IMG/VR virus record: IMGVR_UViG_3300006802_012847
Coordinates: 36,319 to 100,318 of that record
Origin: a virus
Strand: one strand, 5' to 3'
DNA: 64,000 nt
Shown: one piece after another, positions 9,756 through 40,855 of the stretch
Numbering within the stretch: the first letter of the stretch is position 1
Layout of the letters: the number at the start of each line of letters is the position of its first letter
Made by a program: the position numbers and the translations under genes
The notes under the pieces: model-generated
What the model was told of the DNA's origin: nothing
Databases searched by the model: none
Seen by the model: the letters and a program-made list of their open reading frames with translations, nothing else

Positions 9756-9783
9756 AAAACCTCATCGTAATTGATGAGGTTTT
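9756..9783 (+). terminator. intrinsic terminator
   Basis: AAAACCTCATC-gtaatt-GATGAGGTTTT hairpin after the sheath gene. Confidence 0.75.
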
Positions 9784-9836
9784 ATTTTGTTTACTAGGTT
9801 TTTAACTTTTTACCCACTTATATACTATTTATTAAT

Positions 9837-10580
9837 ATGAAGAATATTAAAAAAATCTGTGAATGGACTGGTCAAGAATTTTATGTTGATTTTAAACATA
9901 GAAATCAAAGATTTATAGATAAAAATGCAATGTATACTTGGCGAAAAAATCAAAATAGAGAAACTGTTAAATGTTTAAAATGTGGAAACGAATTTGAAAG
10001 ATATAAAAATATATTACATCCAAAAAGCGGAAAACCCACACAATATTGTTCCAATGAATGTAACAGAACGTCCGATGAAAAACGAGAAAAATTAAAAAAA
10101 TGGGCAAATTCAAACAGTAATCATTGGTTTAATAAAAAGTGTCAATCTAAAGTAAAATTGACAAAACTTGAAAAATACGGAGATGAAAATTACAACAATA
10201 CAGAAAAGTCAATAGAAACTTGTTTATCTAAATATGGTGTTCCGTATACAGTTTATTTACCACATGTTAGATCAAATGGCAAAACCATATCTAAATTTCA
10301 AAAAAGAATTTATGATGAGGTTAAAAAAGAATATTCGGATGCTTTATTAGAAGAATATCTGTCGGATATAAATAAATCGGTCGATATTTATGTTCCTTCA
10401 AAGAAACTAATAATAGAATGTTTTGGTGATTATTGGCATTGTAATCCAAACGTATATAAACCAGAATACTATCATAAAAATGTTAAGTTAACAGCTAAAC
10501 AAATTTGGGATAGAGATAATGAACGAATTGAACATTTCAAAAAACTCGGTTATGATATAAAAATAGTTTGGGAATCATAA
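9837..10580 (+). CDS. free-standing Vsr/DUF559-like (putative homing) endonuclease with Cys-rich DNA-binding repeats
   Basis: CLKCG..YCSNEC, KYGDENYNN / KYGVPY repeats, VDIYVPSKKLIIECFGDYWH, RDNERIEHFKKLGYDIKIVWES. Confidence 0.75.
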   Translation: MKNIKKICEWTGQEFYVDFKHRNQRFIDKNAMYTWRKNQNRETVKCLKCGNEFERYKNILHPKSGKPTQYCSNECNRTSDEKREKLKKWANSNSNHWFNKKCQSKVKLTKLEKYGDENYNNTEKSIETCLSKYGVPYTVYLPHVRSNGKTISKFQKRIYDEVKKEYSDALLEEYLSDINKSVDIYVPSKKLIIECFGDYWHCNPNVYKPEYYHKNVKLTAKQIWDRDNERIEHFKKLGYDIKIVWES

Positions 10581-10600
10581 ACAGTTTATATTTATAATAT

Positions 10601-12718: not shown

Positions 12719-13357
12719 ATGAAAAAAGGAAAATCTAATTTAGATATTCTTCGCAATTATGTCGAAGGAACTCGACCATTTATTCAAGTTGGCTATGATG
12801 AAAATACTGCTTTGGAAAGTAGAAAAGAGGGTGAAGAATGGGAAGATGGTAGGGGTAATAGATGGAAAAAAGAAAATGGTATCAAGAAAAAAATATCGAA
12901 GAAAGCTACAATAATTAATGAAAAGAGATGTAGGATTTGTAACTGTGATACTCGTTGGGGCAATTATTTAGATGATAGAGTTTGGCCGAAAACTCAACTT
13001 TGTTATGATTGTTTTAATGAAGAAGAAACTAGAATGAAGTTAGACGGCACTTGGGAAATATTTAATAAATTAAGAGATTTAAAAAATGGAAAATCTGCTT
13101 TATTAGATCACAAAAGTAAATTTGAACAAACTAAAAAATGGTGTGAAGAAAATAAGGGAAAGCCGTTGGAGTTTGTGAATGAAGATGGCAGTATTGAGAA
13201 GTGGGAAGGCGATACTAGCGCAGAAAAAATATTAAAAGATGTTACGTCAGATTTAGGAATACTTGAGAATAGATTGACTGAAATAAATGATCTTATTGAT
13301 GGATTAGAAAAAGAATATGAGTCAAAATCTAAGAGAAATAATAAAACAAGAATATAA
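12719..13357 (+). CDS. conserved hypothetical protein with CxxC..CxxC, upstream of terminase
   Basis: 212 aa; CRIC..LCYDC; overlaps the TerL start. Confidence 0.6.
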   Translation: MKKGKSNLDILRNYVEGTRPFIQVGYDENTALESRKEGEEWEDGRGNRWKKENGIKKKISKKATIINEKRCRICNCDTRWGNYLDDRVWPKTQLCYDCFNEEETRMKLDGTWEIFNKLRDLKNGKSALLDHKSKFEQTKKWCEENKGKPLEFVNEDGSIEKWEGDTSAEKILKDVTSDLGILENRLTEINDLIDGLEKEYESKSKRNNKTRI

Positions 13358-14165
13358 GAAGTGTGTAGAAAATCCAATATACTTCATGAAGAAGTATGTG
13401 AAGATTCAACACCCGATTAAAGGAACATGTAGTTTTGATTTATTTCCTTTTCAAGAAGAAGCATTATCTAGTTTAGTAAATAATCCACTAAACATTATCT
13501 TGAAAAGTCGTCAAATGGGTATTTCTACTCTTACAGCTGCATATAGTTTGTGGTTGATGACGTTTCACAATGATAAAAATATTCTTTGTATTAGTATTAC
13601 ACAAGAAACTGCAAAAGAAATTGTCACCAAAGTTAGATTTGCTAACGATAACCTTCCGTCATGGTTAAAAGTTCAATGTGTAGAAGATAATAGATTAAGT
13701 CTTCGTTTAAAAAATGGTTCTCAGATTAAAGCAGTATCTTCTGCTGGAACTGCTGGTCGTTCTGCCGCACTATCGCTTTTGGTAATAGATGAAGCTGCTT
13801 TTATTGATGGCATTGAAGAAATATGGTTATCTGCTCAATATACCTTATCTACTGGTGGTAGAGCAATTGTGTTGAGTACACCGAATGGAGTGGGTAATTT
13901 CTTTCATAAAACGTGGATAGGAGCAGAGTCTGGCGATAATGGATTTAAAACAATAAGACTTCCGTGGCATTTACATCCAGAACGAGATCAAGCATGGCGT
14001 GATAGACAAACAGAATTATCTGGTGTAAAAGGCGCGGCACAGGAGTGTGATTGTATATGGGGAGAATCTGTCGTCCGAGTTAAAGATAAAGATACGAATG
14101 AAGAATTTACAATTTCTTTAAAAGATTTATATAATTCGGGGTATTGTATAATTAATAATATTTAA
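13317..14165 (+). CDS. terminase large subunit, N-terminal ATPase half plus 37-aa N-intein
   Basis: LKSRQMGIST (Walker A region), LLVIDEAAF (Walker B), STPNG; ends AQECD|CIWGES...NNI*. Confidence 0.92.
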   Translation: MSQNLREIIKQEYKKCVENPIYFMKKYVKIQHPIKGTCSFDLFPFQEEALSSLVNNPLNIILKSRQMGISTLTAAYSLWLMTFHNDKNILCISITQETAKEIVTKVRFANDNLPSWLKVQCVEDNRLSLRLKNGSQIKAVSSAGTAGRSAALSLLVIDEAAFIDGIEEIWLSAQYTLSTGGRAIVLSTPNGVGNFFHKTWIGAESGDNGFKTIRLPWHLHPERDQAWRDRQTELSGVKGAAQECDCIWGESVVRVKDKDTNEEFTISLKDLYNSGYCIINNI

Positions 14166-14544
14166 TTTTTTTAAAAATACTTATATAATTTTGATATTAG
14201 AATAAAATATAATGGAATTTAAATTAAATAAAAATTTAGAGATACTTACCCCAACTGGATATAGAAATTTCCACGGTATTCGTAAATTAACAAAAGATGT
14301 TTGTTTTGAAATAAAATTTAATAATAATAAAAAATTAAAATGTTCAGAAACACATGTTTTTATCAGTGATAACAAAGAAATAAAAGCAAATGAGTTAACC
14401 GTAAAATCTTCAATTGACGGTAAAAATGGAGAATCTGTAATTGTTACAAGTATTAAAAAAATACAAGAAACTATAGATCTTTATGATATTGTAGAGGTAG
14501 ATAATGGTAATGTGTTTATTGTAGATGATATAGTTTCACACAAT
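14052..14544 (+). mobile_element. naturally split intein (IntN 14052-14162, 37 aa; IntC 14212-14544, 111 aa)
   Basis: Cys1 block A CIWGESVV; block B LKCSETH in the C part; block F LYDIVEV; terminal SHN|C; joined exteins read AQECD-CDFSTSG. Confidence 0.88.
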
Positions 14545-15399
14545 TGTGACTTCTCAACTTCTGGTAATCAAGTTGTATCTGTAGAAACATTAGAATATTA
14601 TAAAGCTACGTTTGTTGTTGATCCTATTGAGAAAAGAGGAGCAGGCGGTGATTTTTGGATATGGGAGAGACCCGATTATAGTAAAAACTATATTATAAGT
14701 GCTGACTGCGCTCGTGGTGATAGTAGTGACTATAGTGCATTTCAAATATTCGATGTTGAAAGTATGGAACAAGTGGGTGAATACAAAGGTCAAATTACCA
14801 CTAAAGATTATGGCAATATGTTAGTTGCGGTGGCCACAGAATATAATAACGCATTGTTAGTTGTAGAAAATAACAACATAGGATGGGCTACTCTCCAACA
14901 AATAATTGATAGAGATTATAAAAATACTTTCTATAGTACTCCAGATTTAAATATAATTGATGTTGAACACAGTTATACTAATAAACTCAGTCGTCAAGAT
15001 AAAAAGTTAATAGCTGGATTTACAACTACAAATAAAAATAGACCTTTGATTATCAGTAATATGGAATCGTGTTTTAGAGATAAATCTATTACAATTAAGT
15101 CTGTTAGATTATATGAAGAATTGAATGTTTTTATTTGGCATGGAGCTAAAGCAGAAGCTATGAGAGGATATAACGATGACTTAGTAATGTCCTTAAGTAT
15201 AGGCTTGTGGATTCGTGATACAGCGCTTAAACTAAGAAATGAACAAATAAGTTATACTAAGAATATGTTAAGCGGAATTAAAAAAGTAACTAGTGTAGAA
15301 ACAAGACCAGGGCCGCAAAATAAGATATTAGCATCTCCAGAAGAGTCATGGGCTATGGAAGTTAATGGGAAAAAAGAAAACTTAAACTGGTTATTGTAA
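14212..15399 (+). CDS. C-intein plus terminase large subunit nuclease half
   Basis: After HN|C: ISADCARGDSSDYSA, VVENNNIG, GFTTT, NDDLVMSL (RNase H-like terminase nuclease). Confidence 0.92.
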   Translation: MEFKLNKNLEILTPTGYRNFHGIRKLTKDVCFEIKFNNNKKLKCSETHVFISDNKEIKANELTVKSSIDGKNGESVIVTSIKKIQETIDLYDIVEVDNGNVFIVDDIVSHNCDFSTSGNQVVSVETLEYYKATFVVDPIEKRGAGGDFWIWERPDYSKNYIISADCARGDSSDYSAFQIFDVESMEQVGEYKGQITTKDYGNMLVAVATEYNNALLVVENNNIGWATLQQIIDRDYKNTFYSTPDLNIIDVEHSYTNKLSRQDKKLIAGFTTTNKNRPLIISNMESCFRDKSITIKSVRLYEELNVFIWHGAKAEAMRGYNDDLVMSLSIGLWIRDTALKLRNEQISYTKNMLSGIKKVTSVETRPGPQNKILASPEESWAMEVNGKKENLNWLL

Positions 15400-15423: not shown

Positions 15424-18400
15424 ATGGACGATAAATCATTTCAAGAATTAAAAAACAGATCATTATATGCTAAATTAAAAAGATTATTTAGCAATGATGT
15501 AGTTGTTCGAAATGTTGGTGGTAAAAAATTAAAAGTAATTGATACCGATGAAGTTTTTTATGCAACGGATCGTAATAGTTTAAGAGACAGATTTAATCGT
15601 CTAAGAACTACATCATATAATCAATATACCAGAGATTATAATTTATCCTATCAAAGTTCCCGTGTAGAACTATTTCGTGATTATGATTGCGTTGGACCAG
15701 ATACAGTAGTACCACTACCCGATGGAACTTTTCCCACGATCGCGGAACTTGCTGAAAAATATAAAGATAAACCTCAAGAAAGATTTTATGTATTTTCATA
15801 TGATCATGAAACAGACAGTATAAAATTAGGTAAAGCATATCATCCTCGTAAAAAGAAAGGAAAACGTCAAGGATATAAAGTAACATTTGATAATGGTCAA
15901 TATGTCATTGCCAGTCTTAAACATCCATTTATGATGCGAGATGGAACATATAAACGAACATTTGAACTTAGAGTTGGTGATTCTATAATGCCATTTTATC
16001 AAAGAGAATACGGATATAAAAAACACGGGTTTAAAAGATATCGTAGATTGTATAATTTTTCAAAAGGATGGCAATCAGAACATAAAATTGTCGCTGAACA
16101 ATTTGATAGACCTCTTAAAAAAGGAGAGGTTGTACATCATATCAATATAAATGGCGCTGATAATAGTCCAGAAAATCTTTTGATAATGGATTGGAAAGAA
16201 CACAAAAAATTTCATTCTGAATATAATAAAAATGCGTTATGGGGTAAAGAAAATTATGAGAAACAACTAAATAAGTTGAGATCACATCCGAATTATATTA
16301 ATAGAAATATTCATCATTGGAATGGGGAAAGAAAGGGAGAAAATAATCCATTTTATGGAAAAATACATACCGATGAATCAAATAAACAGAGATCAGATAC
16401 TTTAAAGGAAGTATTTAAAAATAGAAATCAAAATGGAAATAAAAATCCAAAATATAGAGATGATATAACTTTTGATAATGTTAAAGAAAAAGCATACGAA
16501 TATTATAAAGAATATTCTAAAATTAATCTTTGGGATTTTATTAAACATATACATTGTGATCACTCCACTCTTCAAAATCGTTTAAAAACAGAAGGACATG
16601 ATTGGAAATCATTCAAACAAGATGTTGAAACAACATTGAATCATAAAATTATTTCAATAGAACACATTGGCGAAGTTGATGTATACGATGTAACAGTTGA
16701 AAAATATGAAAATTTTGCAACAGATAGTTGTTTCGTCTCGAATACAATGGATATGGACCCAATTCTTGCTGCAGCATTAGACATATATGCAGATGAATGT
16801 ACTACTAGAAATGAAATGGGCGAAGTAATCACTGTTAGAAGCACTAATGATGATGTTAAATTAGTATTAAACAATTTATTCTATGACATTTTAAACATTG
16901 AATTCAACTTATGGTCGTGGATTCGTAGTTTAGTTAAATATGGTGATTTTTATTTAAGACTTTATATAAGTCCAGAGTATGGGGTTTATATGGTAGAACC
17001 ACTAAGTACTTACTATGTCACCCGTGTAGAAAATGCTCATTTAACTAATAAAAATTTTGTAAAGTTCCAAGTTAATATGCCTTATGGTAATAAGATTGAA
17101 GACCTCGAAAATTACCAAATGGCACACTTTAGACTACTAAGTGATAGTAACTTTCTGCCATACGGTAAAAGTATGTTAGAAGGCGCAAGACGTGTCTGGA
17201 AACAATTAAGTTTGATGGAGGATGCAATGTTGATTCATCGTATCATGCGTGCTCCAGAAAAACGTATTTTCAAAGTAGATATTGGTAACATCCCACCAAA
17301 TGAAGTGGACAATCACATGGAGAGAATCATTAGTCAAATGAAAAAAACTCCATATCTAGATCAAAATACTGGTGATTATAATCTTCGATTTAATTTACAA
17401 AACATGGTCGAAGACTTTTTCTTACCAGTTCGTGGTAGTGATAGTGGTACTGCTATAGATAATTTGCCAGGTCTAGAGTGGACAGGTACAGATGATATCG
17501 AATATCTACGTAATAAAATGATGGCTGCTCTTAAAATACCTAAAGCATTTTTGGGTTATGATGAAACTGTAAGCGGTAAAGCTACATTAGCAGCTGAAGA
17601 TATTCGTTTTGCTAGAACAATTCAAAGACTCCAAAGAATCGTTGTTAGTGAATTAAATAAAATAGCAGTAGTTCATTTATATAGTCAAGGATATCGTGAT
17701 GAGGCTCTTGTTGATTTTAGTTTAGAATTGACAAATCCATCTACAATCTTTGAAAAAGAAAAACTCGATGTTTGGAAAAGTAAAGTTGAAGTTAGTGAAG
17801 CTATGCAGCAAGAAAAACTGTTTAGTAAGAAATGGATTTACGAAAATGTATTTGGTATGTCTGACCAAGACATGATTACAATGCAAAAACAACTGGTTGA
17901 TGATGCTAAAGGAATGTATCGATTTAAACAGATCGAAGAAGAAGGTGATGATCCAGCATTAGCATTTTTAAAATCTAAAGACGAAGAAGGCGGAGAAGGA
18001 GCACCAGAAGAAGGTGGGGAAGAAGGGGACTTAGGAGATCTTGCTGGTGGTACTGGCGAAGAAACGCCTGAAGGTGGAGCCGAAACTGAACCAGCAGCTG
18101 GGGGTGGTGGCGAAGAAGAAACACCTACATTAACTGAAAAAACGAAATTGACTGCTCATGAACGTGAAAAAGCAGCAAAAGAAAAAGAAAAAAATCGGGA
18201 TAGAGACCAAACTGGAAGAAAAAAAGCTAATGATTATAGATTTGGCGAAGATCCATTAGGTTCTCTGGAATTAAATTCGGAACCTGATAGAAGTGTATCT
18301 CATAAATATAAAGGTAGATCTCCTTTATCGCTTGAGGGATTATCTTCTATATTAGATGAACTAGAACAACATAAATCTATGTTGAATGAGACCAAAGAAA

Positions 18401-18444
18401 AATCATCAGGGTCTTACATGGATGAAATAAATATTAAAGAATAA
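15424..18444 (+). CDS. portal protein (gp20-like) containing an intein
   Basis: LDIYADE, YGKSMLE, MEDAMLIHRIMRAPEKRIFKVDIGN, EDFFLPVRG, LKIPKAFL; acidic Gly-rich C-terminal tail. Confidence 0.93.
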   Translation: MDDKSFQELKNRSLYAKLKRLFSNDVVVRNVGGKKLKVIDTDEVFYATDRNSLRDRFNRLRTTSYNQYTRDYNLSYQSSRVELFRDYDCVGPDTVVPLPDGTFPTIAELAEKYKDKPQERFYVFSYDHETDSIKLGKAYHPRKKKGKRQGYKVTFDNGQYVIASLKHPFMMRDGTYKRTFELRVGDSIMPFYQREYGYKKHGFKRYRRLYNFSKGWQSEHKIVAEQFDRPLKKGEVVHHININGADNSPENLLIMDWKEHKKFHSEYNKNALWGKENYEKQLNKLRSHPNYINRNIHHWNGERKGENNPFYGKIHTDESNKQRSDTLKEVFKNRNQNGNKNPKYRDDITFDNVKEKAYEYYKEYSKINLWDFIKHIHCDHSTLQNRLKTEGHDWKSFKQDVETTLNHKIISIEHIGEVDVYDVTVEKYENFATDSCFVSNTMDMDPILAAALDIYADECTTRNEMGEVITVRSTNDDVKLVLNNLFYDILNIEFNLWSWIRSLVKYGDFYLRLYISPEYGVYMVEPLSTYYVTRVENAHLTNKNFVKFQVNMPYGNKIEDLENYQMAHFRLLSDSNFLPYGKSMLEGARRVWKQLSLMEDAMLIHRIMRAPEKRIFKVDIGNIPPNEVDNHMERIISQMKKTPYLDQNTGDYNLRFNLQNMVEDFFLPVRGSDSGTAIDNLPGLEWTGTDDIEYLRNKMMAALKIPKAFLGYDETVSGKATLAAEDIRFARTIQRLQRIVVSELNKIAVVHLYSQGYRDEALVDFSLELTNPSTIFEKEKLDVWKSKVEVSEAMQQEKLFSKKWIYENVFGMSDQDMITMQKQLVDDAKGMYRFKQIEEEGDDPALAFLKSKDEEGGEGAPEEGGEEGDLGDLAGGTGEETPEGGAETEPAAGGGGEEETPTLTEKTKLTAHEREKAAKEKEKNRDRDQTGRKKANDYRFGEDPLGSLELNSEPDRSVSHKYKGRSPLSLEGLSSILDELEQHKSMLNETKEKSSGSYMDEINIKE
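15688..16743 (+). mobile_element. 352-aa intein with HNH homing endonuclease and NUMOD3-like motif
   Basis: YD|CVGPDTVV start; ASLKHPF block B; VVHHININGADNSPENL..EHKKFH HNH; GENNPFYGKIHT; VYDVTVEKYENF..VSN|T end. Confidence 0.9.
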
Positions 18445-35647: not shown

Positions 35648-38089
35648 ATGGCAAATTCTATCCGACAATCAGAACTCGATAGACTCAAAAATTCTATTAG
35701 GGACATGACAGACTTATCTAGGTCTGTTCGTAATACATTCGACGAGATCAATTCAGTAACAGGCGATACAGCGGATAAATTTAAAACTATTGTAGATAAT
35801 GCTAAACAAAATGCAAATCTTGTTGAAAGATATCTTATAAGTCAACAACTCACCAAAAAAATACAATCGCAGATAAATGAATTTAAATCTAAGTCTGGTT
35901 ATTTAGATAGATCACAGCTAGAATTTAGAAAGAGCGAACTTTTATTACAAAAGAAAATTGCAACTGCTCAGATTAGTAGACTATTAAATTCTCAATTAGA
36001 TAATGATGCTAAAGAACAAGCAATTAATGCCATCAAGACAAGAATGATGATGGAGAGTGCTGAGTTAGACATATTAGAAAAACAAGTAGACACTCAGAAT
36101 GATATTGTAAGAGCATTAGAAGATCAACTCACAGCAGCTCAAAAATTAGGAGAAGTTACTATAGAACAAGACAATTTATTTGACCAAGGAAAAAATAAAT
36201 TACTTGATTGGTATAACAAATTTAAAAATATTAATGTTTTACAAAAAGGCATAGCGATAGCGACTACAACATTTGTAGCAATTATTAAAAAAGGATATGA
36301 AAACTTTCTAGCATTTGATACAGCTGCAACTAGTGTTAGACAGACCCTTGGATTTTTCCCAGGCGAGATGGATGCGTTGAGAGGTACTATAAAAAATGTT
36401 ACTTTTGATCTCATGGACATGGGTGCAACATTTGATGATGTTGCAAAATCCGTAACAGCTATCGCATCGGAAATAAATGGAATTGTTGCCCAAGACAAGG
36501 AGTTACTAACTACCGTAACCGCTCTGGCAAAAAACTTTGGAATATCAGAAGCTACATCTGCAAAGTTTTTAAAAACCATGGGTGGTGTGAGTAATCAAAC
36601 TGCTAAATCTCAAACAGCGATGATAGGATTTAGTAAAAACTTAGCAAAAGCATCTGGAGTTCCATTAGATCAATTGATGAAAGATGTAGCTGATGCTGGT
36701 GATAATGCTAGAATATATGCAGGTCGTACCGCAGTTGAATTAGTTAAAGCAGCGGCTGGTGCTAGAATGTTGGGAACTAATTTAGAATCAGCCGCAAAAT
36801 CAGCGGATCAGTTATTAAATTTTGAAAGTAGTATTAACTCCGAATTAAAAGCAAGTGCTCTATTAGGAAGAAATATAGATTTCAATCGTGCTCGTCAATT
36901 AGCATTTAGCAAAGATATTTTAGGATCAGAAAAAGAAATTTTACGTATAACAAAAGGTATTAAATTTAATGAACTGAATCCAATACAACAAAAAGCATAT
37001 GCTGAAGCAGCTGGTAAAACCGTTGGTGAATTACAAGACATGCTTCAAGCAGAAAAGAATATGCAACTTCTTCGTGAATCTGGTACTCAAGAACAAAGAG
37101 ATTTGATTAATGAGTATGATAGATTGATGCAAATGAAAGAGGAACAAGCACAGAGTGAAGGAGAAATTGCTGAACAACAAATCAAACAAAGATTGAATCA
37201 AGAAAGAATGGCTCAACTTCAAAATAAATTTAATAAATTAATATCTGAGCTAGCCGGACCAGTTATGGATTTTGTTGAACCACTGTTAGATTTAGCTATT
37301 AAGATTTTTCCTGGACTTGTAGCGGGAATGAAAATTTTTAGCAATGCTGTACTCTTTGTTACTGGTCTCGAACTATGGAAAATGATTCCTAAAGCTATAG
37401 GTGTATTTTCTAGATTTTTCAGTGGAGGTGCTGGATTTGTCAAATCGCTTGGGGCTGCAACTGTATCGATGTCAAATTCATTTGGTATATTTGTCAAGGG
37501 CCTTAGTTTCATAGGTAAATTACTTGGACCAATTGGTTTAGTAATAAGTGCTTTTTCTTTAATAGGAAACTTAATGAAAAGATGGCAAGAAGCTCCAGAT
37601 GGTATCTTAGGAGGTTTCGAAGCGATAGCAGGGGCTTTGTATGATACTTTCTTAAAACCTTTCGTGGATGCGTATGATTGGATAGCCGGTATGTTTGTCG
37701 GCAAATCCCCATCAAAATTAGCACTTGGAATATTAAAAGGAATTCAGTCAGTTGCTGGACTCATACTAGATGCTTTAACATTGCCATTCAGATTATTCTG
37801 GAACAACACAGTTGCTAAGATACCTGGCGTACCAGCATTAGGTGCTCCTAGTGAAGCGTTAGGATTGGGTGGTGCTGGTGGCGAATCTGGTGAAGGATCT
37901 ATAGGAGGAAACGATAAATTAATGGAAGTAATTTCCACTGGCAATCAACAAATAGTAAATAAAATTGATGAATTAATAACCGCACTAGGTAATGGTGGTA
38001 TTGGTGTTAATTTAGATGGTGTCAAAGTTAACTATGCTCTTGCTAAATCAGCTGTAACAAGAGGGAGTTTTGGACAAGCAACATTCTAA
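35648..38089 (+). CDS. tape measure protein
   Basis: 813 aa helical, Ala/Gln-rich, hydrophobic C-terminal repeats; position after the chaperone. Confidence 0.8.
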   Translation: MANSIRQSELDRLKNSIRDMTDLSRSVRNTFDEINSVTGDTADKFKTIVDNAKQNANLVERYLISQQLTKKIQSQINEFKSKSGYLDRSQLEFRKSELLLQKKIATAQISRLLNSQLDNDAKEQAINAIKTRMMMESAELDILEKQVDTQNDIVRALEDQLTAAQKLGEVTIEQDNLFDQGKNKLLDWYNKFKNINVLQKGIAIATTTFVAIIKKGYENFLAFDTAATSVRQTLGFFPGEMDALRGTIKNVTFDLMDMGATFDDVAKSVTAIASEINGIVAQDKELLTTVTALAKNFGISEATSAKFLKTMGGVSNQTAKSQTAMIGFSKNLAKASGVPLDQLMKDVADAGDNARIYAGRTAVELVKAAAGARMLGTNLESAAKSADQLLNFESSINSELKASALLGRNIDFNRARQLAFSKDILGSEKEILRITKGIKFNELNPIQQKAYAEAAGKTVGELQDMLQAEKNMQLLRESGTQEQRDLINEYDRLMQMKEEQAQSEGEIAEQQIKQRLNQERMAQLQNKFNKLISELAGPVMDFVEPLLDLAIKIFPGLVAGMKIFSNAVLFVTGLELWKMIPKAIGVFSRFFSGGAGFVKSLGAATVSMSNSFGIFVKGLSFIGKLLGPIGLVISAFSLIGNLMKRWQEAPDGILGGFEAIAGALYDTFLKPFVDAYDWIAGMFVGKSPSKLALGILKGIQSVAGLILDALTLPFRLFWNNTVAKIPGVPALGAPSEALGLGGAGGESGEGSIGGNDKLMEVISTGNQQIVNKIDELITALGNGGIGVNLDGVKVNYALAKSAVTRGSFGQATF

Positions 38090-38101
38090 TACTTATACAA
38101 A

Positions 38102-40855
38102 ATGGCAAACAGTCAAACATTTTTAGAAGGAAATACTGGAGGCGGTGGACAGATTACAACTCTTTCCCAAGTACAGGGTGCGGGTCTTCAAATTCCAGGA
38201 AGTGATTTTATTAATATAAGATCGCCTGGTAAATTAAGAGCATTATTTGAAAGCAATGGTAATGCTGAACAAATTTATTCTGTTAACAAACCAGAAGATC
38301 TTGGATTAGCCGATGCTTTAAGAAATAGATTTCAGTATAAAAATCCAAATCAAGGTCAGCGTGATAGAAAAATTACAAACATAACTAGAGCTGCTGCTCA
38401 AGATGCCAATTTAGTAAGAAGTTTTTTACGTTCTAAAAATGGTACTAAATTTTTAACACAACAATTGTTGTTACAAGGATTTCAAGCATTTGACGAAACT
38501 AAATTATATAATCCACTATCTCCATATATTGCTGCTTTAAAACCGGCGTCATTTGGTTTAGTAGAAAATCCCACACGTCACGTTGATACGTCAAATGCGA
38601 TTGGCGGTATTGTAAATGGTCTGGGCATTGGAAAAATAACGTCTACTATTGGAGGTCTGTTTGGAGGCGCTCCATCTCAACCAGCACCGCCTCGTTCTTC
38701 TGTTGCTAGTGAAGCTAGTGGTGGATTTGGACTTGCTACGTTTACAAGTTTTCTAGGTGGTGGTGATAGAACAAGTAAAATTGTAGCACCTATTGCACGT
38801 GGTGATGTAAAAGGACTACTAAGAGGGGGAACTGCTACTGGTGCTTATAATGCTCCTAGATATACTAAGTTGGTTGGACAAGGAAACGGCGGAGGATTCT
38901 TCAAGAAACTTTTATCAGGTGTAGGAAAATTTATACAGAACAATACAGCTATAGGTGGACTATTACCTCCTAAACAACCATGGAATGCTAAGTATCGTGC
39001 TGATGAAGAAACATATGATTTGTATTTAAATGCTGGCAAACTTTTTGAGGCAGGAGATACTGGTATAGCTGGAGGTGGAATTTTAAGTGGAATTCTTAAT
39101 GCGATTGGATTTGGTAAAAAGGCTAATTATTCTTTAGCGGTAAAACAAAGGTTTCATACTACTTCTAAACAATCACCAGATTACAATAGATTAATTATAA
39201 CAAAAAATGTAGGTAAACAATCTGTTCCAAACACAACGTATACATACACAAATAATGTAGGAACGATTGCTGGACCAGGTAAACTTACAGGCAAAGATAT
39301 TGCTGAAGTTCCAGTGGCAAGTGGTTATGATTCAAATAGATCTAGATTAATTTATGGAGATGCAGTTGGATCTAGAGTGACTGGTCAATCAAGTGAAGCT
39401 GTTGAACAAAGCGATCAGTTATTAAACTATAAAGCATTAATAAATAATACAAAAGATTTTACACGTACATTTACAAACGAACAAGATGTAGTTGTACAAA
39501 GTTTAATTGAGAGTTTTAATGATGCGTTAATGGATATATCTACTCCAGAAAATGCAAAATATTCAATTAATCTTTCTAGTAAAAAGAATTTATATCCTTT
39601 ACAGTTTGCTAAATTTCAGTCTGGTAATAAAGTTGGTATGGATTATGTAGATCAAATTGATTCTACACCAAAAAATGACACAACTAAAAATAATAATTCA
39701 TACCAAGCAAGACTAAGATTTGACGAAACAAAAGCAAATAAAGTTCCATCTAGATTAGGAGAACTTGACTCAAAAGATAGATTCATAAGACCAACTAATA
39801 ATGTAGATTATGTTAACGCATTAGAAGTAATGAACGCAGAGGACTTTAAAAAGTATTACTCTGAAACAGAAAACTTTGGAGCATATGGTCCTGATATTAT
39901 CAAATTTTATTTTTATGACATTGTAAATAGAAAATATATTCCATTCAATGCTACGGTTAAAGGAATCACTGATACCAGTAATGCTGAATGGGAAGAAATA
40001 ACTTATATGGGTCGTGCTGATAAGTTACAATACTATAAAGGATTTACTAGAACTATATCATTATCATTTAAAACTGTTGTTCATAGTATTAAAGAATTAA
40101 GACCGATGTGGCAAAGAATAAATTATCTTTCTAGCTTAACTAAACCAGCAAATTATACGTTAGATAATTTTGGAGGATATATGATTTCTCCGATGGTACA
40201 ATTAACACTCGGCGATTTTTATAAGAATCACAATGTTGTAATTACGAGTTGTGGTGTTACCGTTCCAGATGATGCTTCTTGGGAAACTATACCTGAAGAT
40301 GCTCCGTCACATTTAAGTTGGTACTATGGATTGAACAGAGCAATTTCTTGGGACAGTACTAAAAATCTGTTAAACAGTTCTATAGATACAAGAAAAGCAA
40401 ATTCAAAAGGAAGATTTGCTCAGTTTCCAAGAGAGGCCGAGATTAGTTTACAAATGAAAGTACTTGAAAAAGATTTGCCAAAAGCTGGACGATCTTTATG
40501 GGGTGATTCTCCTGTTCAAAGAGTTACCGCAAAAGAGTATGATGCACTTTATGCTGAAGATGATCCAAATAATCTTTCTGCTGAAAAACTAGTATCGGAT
40601 GGAGCAACAATGGTTGACGTTTATTCTCAAGCATATAAACAGAACGTCACTGTTGCTGATGGAAGTGTACAACAATCAGATATTGATGTATCACGATTAG
40701 ACAGATTTTCAACATATATAAGATATGATAATTATCAACCTGTTGAAGATACTAAAAACGTAGAAGATCCATCGAAGAGTCCAGTAAATTCTCCTCCGCC
40801 TAAAATTGAAACGGCAGGTAGATCGATTACGGATATTCTTGGGCCAGCATCTTAA
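38102..40855 (+). CDS. baseplate / tail-tube initiator-like protein
   Basis: 917 aa; C-terminal YMGRAD..YKGFTRTISLSF..PMVQLTLGD tube-initiator-like segment. Confidence 0.6.
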   Translation: MANSQTFLEGNTGGGGQITTLSQVQGAGLQIPGSDFINIRSPGKLRALFESNGNAEQIYSVNKPEDLGLADALRNRFQYKNPNQGQRDRKITNITRAAAQDANLVRSFLRSKNGTKFLTQQLLLQGFQAFDETKLYNPLSPYIAALKPASFGLVENPTRHVDTSNAIGGIVNGLGIGKITSTIGGLFGGAPSQPAPPRSSVASEASGGFGLATFTSFLGGGDRTSKIVAPIARGDVKGLLRGGTATGAYNAPRYTKLVGQGNGGGFFKKLLSGVGKFIQNNTAIGGLLPPKQPWNAKYRADEETYDLYLNAGKLFEAGDTGIAGGGILSGILNAIGFGKKANYSLAVKQRFHTTSKQSPDYNRLIITKNVGKQSVPNTTYTYTNNVGTIAGPGKLTGKDIAEVPVASGYDSNRSRLIYGDAVGSRVTGQSSEAVEQSDQLLNYKALINNTKDFTRTFTNEQDVVVQSLIESFNDALMDISTPENAKYSINLSSKKNLYPLQFAKFQSGNKVGMDYVDQIDSTPKNDTTKNNNSYQARLRFDETKANKVPSRLGELDSKDRFIRPTNNVDYVNALEVMNAEDFKKYYSETENFGAYGPDIIKFYFYDIVNRKYIPFNATVKGITDTSNAEWEEITYMGRADKLQYYKGFTRTISLSFKTVVHSIKELRPMWQRINYLSSLTKPANYTLDNFGGYMISPMVQLTLGDFYKNHNVVITSCGVTVPDDASWETIPEDAPSHLSWYYGLNRAISWDSTKNLLNSSIDTRKANSKGRFAQFPREAEISLQMKVLEKDLPKAGRSLWGDSPVQRVTAKEYDALYAEDDPNNLSAEKLVSDGATMVDVYSQAYKQNVTVADGSVQQSDIDVSRLDRFSTYIRYDNYQPVEDTKNVEDPSKSPVNSPPPKIETAGRSITDILGPAS

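Follow-up and report, generated by a model that had tools for sequence, protein, structure and literature searches.

The large terminase (TerL) gene terL in a 64,000-nucleotide stretch of viral DNA (IMG/VR record IMGVR_UViG_3300006802_012847, positions 36,319 to 100,318; this whole stretch is called the window) is divided into two genes, each of which carries one fragment of an intein. Sequence comparison assigns the element to the naturally split class 1 inteins of the atypical TerL type (AceL-TerL, GOS-TerL and Cat), and its host gene is a T4-type terL. The carrier is a large, T4-like jumbo phage from fresh water. The best overall explanation, which is very probably correct, is that the split intein restores TerL by trans-splicing and that the locus likely lost a nuclease gene. 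The locus adds a further member to an already described kind, which includes the GOS terminase of Dassa et al. 2009 as well as GOS-TerL and AceL-TerL.

Anatomy of the split terL locus

The upstream open reading frame (ORF), 13317..14165, encodes 282 aa and has the C terminus ...AQECD/CIWGES...CIINNI followed by a stop codon. The downstream ORF, 14212..15399, encodes 395 aa in the +1 frame, with the border between the C-terminal intein fragment (IntC) and the extein at IVSHN/CDFSTSG. The locus consists of the following parts:

13317..14051, plus strand: N-extein, TerL ATPase domain, 245 aa, C-terminal end ...GAAQECD
14052..14162, plus strand: N-terminal intein fragment (IntN), 37 aa, conserved core CIWGESVVRVKDKDTNEEFTISLKDLY (block A, Cys1) and then tail NSGYCIINNI; stop codon 14163-14165
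14166..14211, no strand: inter-gene gap, 46 nt, 3 G/C (6.5% G+C), stops in all three frames
14212..14544, plus strand: IntC, 111 aa, MEFKLNKNLEILTPTG...; block B CSETH, block F LYDIVEV, block G IVSHN
14545..15399, plus strand: C-extein, TerL nuclease domain, 284 aa plus stop, Cys+1 first (CDFSTSG...)

A preliminary description of this DNA had reported two ORFs in different frames, a 37-aa IntN, a 111-aa IntC and an AT-rich gap that leaves no endonuclease between the halves. Its coordinates and sequences are reproduced here, and a 46-nt gap with stops in every frame agrees with the missing endonuclease. The IntN stop is backed by a second in-frame TAA at 14172. The ATG at 14212 is the sole possible start of the C half, because a stop 3 codons upstream closes that frame. 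Production of a single chain by programmed frameshifting or readthrough is ruled out by the two in-frame TAA codons after IntN and by the closure of the IntC frame ahead of its ATG. The gap sequence has no further copy elsewhere in the 100-kb record, and the base composition of the 493-nt insert is distinct (22.5% G+C versus 33.7% for the exteins).

The host protein is a T4-type large terminase, as both halves match gp17 structures. The N-extein is recognized by Pfam Terminase_6N (E=1.7e-12) and aligns with T4 gp17 residues 128-346 (3cpe, E about 1e-28). The C-extein aligns with the T4 and RB49 gp17 nuclease domains (3c6a, 3ezk and 3cpe, E about 1e-8 to 4e-9). The insertion point corresponds to approximately residues 368-373 of gp17, which form the hinge at the boundary of the ATPase and nuclease domains.

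Intein family and splicing residues

Evidence for the family assignment comes from both fragments. IntC, used as a single-sequence query, aligns end to end with CatC, chain B of the consensus engineered intein in PDB 6DSL (residues 3-113 against 10-114, E=1.2e-15). The single 37-aa IntN is too short to score as a PDB query and returns chance matches only; when 19 IntN sequences of related loci are combined into a family profile, CatN (6dsl_A) is matched over its full length with E=7.5e-5. Because CatC and CatN are both matched, the two fragments fall in the AceL/GOS-TerL family and break at the same place, and the alignment thereby bears out the atypical split type proposed in the preliminary description. 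The split is atypical in that IntN carries Cys1 and block A only and IntC carries blocks B, F, and G, with ends that coincide with those of CatN and CatC.

Residue conservation points to an element equipped for splicing. The class 1 set is complete, consisting of Cys1, block B S45-x-x-H48, block F D92, H110, N111, and Cys+1, and residues S45, H48, D92, H110 and N111 sit on invariant or nearly invariant columns among 46 family members. In the alignment of 19 IntN sequences, C1 and G4 are invariant and W3 and L26 nearly so, and the last 10 residues (NSGYCIINNI) form a non-conserved tail. The ratio of nonsynonymous to synonymous substitution rates (dN/dS) for family IntC sequences is 0.07-0.19, indicating purifying selection, and the pairs compared include nuclease-less members.

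Empty-site alleles and the reality of the insert

The viral contig L001 displays the same terL gene without an intein. On the two sides of the insertion point, its DNA identity to the window is 98.8% and 99.0%. Missing from it are exactly the 493 nt that comprise IntN, the stop codon, the gap and IntC, and a 5-nt repeat marks the boundaries. TerL in L001 is a single ORF that reads AQECD/CDFSTSG, with protein identities of 98% for the N-extein and 100% for the C-extein. Contigs from two other freshwater sequencing runs, X2 and X6, skip the same 493 nt and have the same AQECD/CDFSTSG junction. Run X2 also contains a contig with 0 differences from the window across the IntC/extein junction. The X2 and X6 contigs therefore indicate that empty and intein-bearing alleles co-occur in nature. 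In L001, X2, and X6 alike, the insertion is precise and in frame, and its removal restores conserved host sequence.

The same two-gene break is present in independent assemblies, where protein P0048 ends ...NSEYCIINNI and proteins P0001 and P0002 start MDNFKLNKN. The preliminary description had named an assembly indel in a continuous ORF as the finding that would undo it, and the only joined form in contigs derived from reads is the intein-free allele. The split arrangement is real, and the exact absence of the 493 nt from L001 and from the X2 and X6 contigs places it far beyond chance. A separate contig from run X6 matches only positions 14146-14236 (from the end of IntN across the gap to IntC codon 8) at ≥90% identity over 90 nt. 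Because its flanking sequences do not resemble the window, the gap and the IntC start may lie in another context there.

Proposed trans-splicing and its alternatives

The upstream gene would yield the ATPase domain followed by the 37-aa IntN, and the downstream gene the 111-aa IntC followed by the nuclease domain. In the proposed mechanism, the HINT fold is completed when the short IntN docks into IntC, which is itself nearly complete. Cys1, the block B Ser and His, the block F Asp, the His-Asn pair and Cys+1 would then carry out protein trans-splicing. The expected product is full-length TerL with the junction ...AQECD-CDFSTSG..., as encoded directly by the intein-free allele. Precursors of 32 kDa and 45 kDa should give a TerL of ~61 kDa that contains the junction peptide AQECDCDFSTSG. 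Trans-splicing at this locus is deduced from sequence.

Alternatively, given that the break falls at the ATPase/nuclease boundary, where a two-chain enzyme is conceivable, the TerL halves could be joined non-covalently via the intein halves, or could act as separate subunits, without any splicing. This is very unlikely, since all splicing residues are retained and conserved in a family under purifying selection, and since the close homologues GOS-TerL, AceL-TerL, and Cat are reported to splice in vitro (PMC11766414). The record is a metagenome assembly with an estimated completeness of 36%, and the filtered set of contigs from the likely source run, X1 (index share 0.98), includes none over 14017-14786, an absence that the filtering explains. 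A dead or decaying terminase of a defective phage, or an assembly artefact, also has to be weighed. Such an origin is hardly credible in view of the near-identical intein that interrupts a different TerL, with matching fragment ends, in independent assemblies, and of a layout common to many other assemblies. Moreover, the reading frames are clean, the exteins are 98-100% identical to those of an intact relative, and the X2 contig reproduces the IntC/extein junction without a difference.

Architectures at this TerL site in relatives

Relatives were collected from IMG/VR and JGI contigs by searching with the C half and with the IntC alignment, and the loci were then classified. The site is empty in 148 loci, which were chosen by extein similarity. 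Contiguous mini-inteins occupy it in L112, L115 and L124 and in proteins P0020 and P0025. Split inteins have an ORF between the halves in 39 loci and only -14 to 62 nt in 13 loci, the window included; other nuclease-less split loci are L003, L093, L098, L099, L109, L114, L126, and L137. The layout of a fractured gene with a free-standing nuclease ORF is seen in L005, L015, L081 and others.

The commonest intervening ORF is ~240-260 aa in length and has no significant sequence match in Pfam, PHROG, or PDB. Its AlphaFold model, built with 13 homologues, has a mean pLDDT of 80.7, and the modelled C-terminal domain (~164-250) adopts a restriction-endonuclease-like fold that resembles the catalytic domain of I-Bth0305I (Z 6.8) and Vsr (Z 6.7) and also aligns with other PD-(D/E)xK-type nucleases. 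The main intervening ORF family therefore appears, by its predicted fold alone, to carry a nuclease domain.

Other types of intervening ORF are found at the same site: that of L130 has an HNH-like motif, and those of L127 and L134 have GIY-YIG-like N-termini. Given the Vsr-like, HNH-like and GIY-YIG-like ORFs, at least three nuclease families are tied to this split intein site. In L106 (2160-3003), IntN is fused in frame to a Vsr-like nuclease ORF, with 281 residues after the extein and a 14-nt overlap with the IntC gene; this arrangement may be an intermediate between a free-standing and an intein-embedded nuclease. In L007 (1995-5138), TerL is split at the Walker B site only, and the halves flank a 350-aa ORF in which NUMOD3 is combined with the N-terminal domain of a TnsA-like endonuclease (PHROG 'endonuclease', E=1.4e-24).

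Loss of a nuclease gene or direct breakage of a contiguous intein

In the fractured genes defined by Dassa et al. 2009, a free-standing endonuclease ORF lies between IntN and IntC. The window has no such ORF between its halves, and the 100-kb record contains no homologue of the ORF that intervenes in relatives. Most likely the element was a fractured gene on arrival, its halves separated by a free-standing homing endonuclease gene of Vsr/EDxHD-like type that would later have been lost by deletion. Related loci capture such deletions at several stages. Compared with L005, L093 has a clean internal deletion of ~676 nt of the nuclease ORF that leaves the first and last codons. L098 retains the 5' part of the ORF only, and L099 has lost that part too. 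Deletion of the nuclease gene is thus a demonstrated route to the layout of the window.

A second possibility is that a contiguous mini-intein was split directly, by a small rearrangement that created a stop codon, a spacer and a new start codon, so that the lineage never had a nuclease gene. Several observations lend this weight and count against nuclease loss. Contiguous mini-inteins of the same family at the same site (P0020, P0025, L112, L115, and L124) make a direct break conceivable, and in the 46-nt gap no ORF fits and no nuclease-gene remnant is recognizable. The tree of 46 IntC sequences has support below 80 in 20 of 43 inner forks, architecture labels are intermixed on it and no more clustered than shuffled labels, and the lineage of the window and P0002 sits on a long branch; the tree is too weak to place the loss. 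On the other hand, the break in the window lies exactly where relatives carry the free-standing ORF, and the deletion derivatives L093, L098, and L099 reach the same nuclease-less layout. Furthermore, the contiguous forms have a linker of 5-6 residues, which the IntN tail and IntC head exceed in length. Direct breakage is therefore the less likely account, though a serious one, and nuclease loss is favoured over it. The preliminary description had left the choice between a nuclease lost and one never present; the same-site ORFs and deletion derivatives narrow this choice towards loss as the likelier history of this lineage.

Evidence for recent movement of the intein

Intein and extein sequences differ sharply in their similarity to relatives. 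IntN is 97% identical in P0048, tail included, and IntC is 95.5% identical in P0001 and P0002. The TerL that carries this near-identical intein is more distant in its exteins, with identities of only 63% for the C part and 87% for the middle part. P0048 and P0002 appear to lie on one 7,796-nt contig. A metagenome search with P0002 identifies only an intein-free relative, L162, with an extein identity of 92%, and misses the locus of P0002 itself. This gap between intein and extein identity, the near-identical phage with an empty site, and the distinct base composition are evidence that the intein was recently transferred between phages, as judged from the sequences.

Continuing transfer of the split intein between phages in its nuclease-less form is rather doubtful. 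Instead of active homing, passive recombination or very recent nuclease loss in both lineages could account for the distribution. In the case of active homing, the element would be mobilized in trans, possibly by a free-standing endonuclease encoded elsewhere, and this would amount to collaborative homing of a split intein. Positions 9759-10587 of the window, after the tail sheath gene, are absent from L001. The ORF in this segment (9837-10580, 247 aa) has PHROG matches to families of homing and HNH endonucleases (E=8e-11). It therefore probably encodes a free-standing homing endonuclease, at a distance of ~3.5 kb on the upstream side of terL, and could serve as a trans mobilizer.

Additional inteins are found in relatives and in the neighbouring gene. 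In P0048, P0050, and P0051 (235-238 aa), an 86-aa middle piece of TerL lies between the IntC of a second intein on its N-terminal side and the IntN of the present intein on its C-terminal side. The second split intein sits at the Walker B site (...IVDE/C). Because two split inteins flank the middle piece, phages of the P0048 type would have TerL in three pieces and need two trans-splicing reactions. In the window, the portal gene (15424-18444) contains a full intein at 15688-16741, with HNH and NUMOD3 motifs and a Pfam Intein_splicing match (E=9.7e-18). Contigs L002 and L004 lack exactly this portal intein stretch of ~1,054 nt.

Candidate expression signals around the C half

Two candidate promoter elements precede the C half:

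14178..14185, plus strand: TACTTATA box, candidate promoter-like element, 27 nt upstream of the C-half start codon
14106..14135, plus strand: sigma-70-like hexamer pair TTTACA-18-TATAAT, 11/12, best in the region, inside IntN coding sequence, ~77 nt upstream of the C-half start

Each of the three plus-strand copies of TACTTATA in the window (14178, 15400, and 38090) is followed by a gene start within 60 nt; the second copy precedes the portal gene, and the third the gene at 38102. The shorter TACTTAT had been put forward as a late box that might drive separate transcription of the C half. Its position, 14178 on the plus strand, stands; as a late promoter it is a weak lead. The 7-mer is not enriched in the window (10 observed versus 21 expected). 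The TACTTATA box as a separate C-half promoter is likewise a weak lead. For TATTTAT, 13 of 33 plus-strand copies fall within 60 nt upstream of gene starts, in zones that make up 4.7% of the window, which is suggestive of a candidate promoter core of this phage; copies upstream of plus-strand genes are located, for example, at 400, 18476, 28886, 35624, 46036, and 56579. Scanning for sigma-70-like sites gave 8 versus 16.5 in shuffles, so the hexamer pair is a lead and not evidence. The C-half start has no Shine-Dalgarno sequence, as is the case for most genes here.

Significance and comparison with known systems

These findings leave the known working of such inteins unchanged. For phage biology, the locus would be a further case of an essential packaging motor that relies on post-translational ligation. 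For evolution, it offers a compact natural record of the split-intein life cycle at one site, complete with a near-identical empty-site relative, in a series that runs from the empty site to a contiguous intein, to a split intein with a nuclease gene, and finally to deletion or fusion of that gene. For protein engineering, it adds an atypical Cys1/Cys+1 pair with a short IntN and the native junction D(-1)/C(+1)D(+2)F(+3), and the related loci hold many further, possibly orthogonal, intein pairs.

Atypically split terminase inteins have precedents. Dassa et al. 2009 describe a gp17-like terminase from Lake Gatun that is 'fractured at an unusual point', with a 122-residue C part that has every motif but N1 (PMC2677866). 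The reported split sizes are 37/115 for GOS-TerL, which has Ser1 and Cys+1, 25/104 for AceL-TerL and 30/104 for Cat, and trans-splicing is reported for all three (PMC11766414). GOS-TerL resembles the window in layout, with a freshwater T4-like gp17 host, a break after block A (N1), a 37-aa IntN and Cys+1 (PMC2677866; Bachmann & Mootz 2015, summarized in PMC11766414), as well as a long C part (115-122 aa) that holds all other motifs. By description, with which the comparison was made, it differs in having Ser1 in place of the Cys1 seen here. In addition, fractured genes containing a free-standing endonuclease have been described for the GOS loci; in the window, the halves are only 46 nt apart.

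AceL-TerL and Cat share Cys1/Cys+1 and the split point with the window, and the Cat sequence matches on both chains. Their IntN fragments are shorter, 25 aa in AceL-TerL and 30 aa in Cat versus 37 aa here, where the extra 6-10 residues belong to the non-conserved tail. Their IntC is 104 aa long rather than 111 aa, and identity to CatC is moderate. The gp41-7 locus likewise has adjacent phage split intein halves without an endonuclease gene between them (PMC2677866), but its host is the gp41 helicase and its split point is canonical. A cultured T4-like example is the Aeromonas phage PX29 (GU396103), in which 17A and 17B are annotated with an N-intein and a C-intein. The PX29 C half aligns with that of the window from residue 8 at a protein identity of ~27%, and differs in that 17B is annotated with a GIY-YIG endonuclease fused to the C-intein. 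The window is set apart from characterized members by the combination of Cys1 with a 37-aa IntN, by the 10-residue non-conserved IntN tail, and by the mere 46 nt between the two genes.

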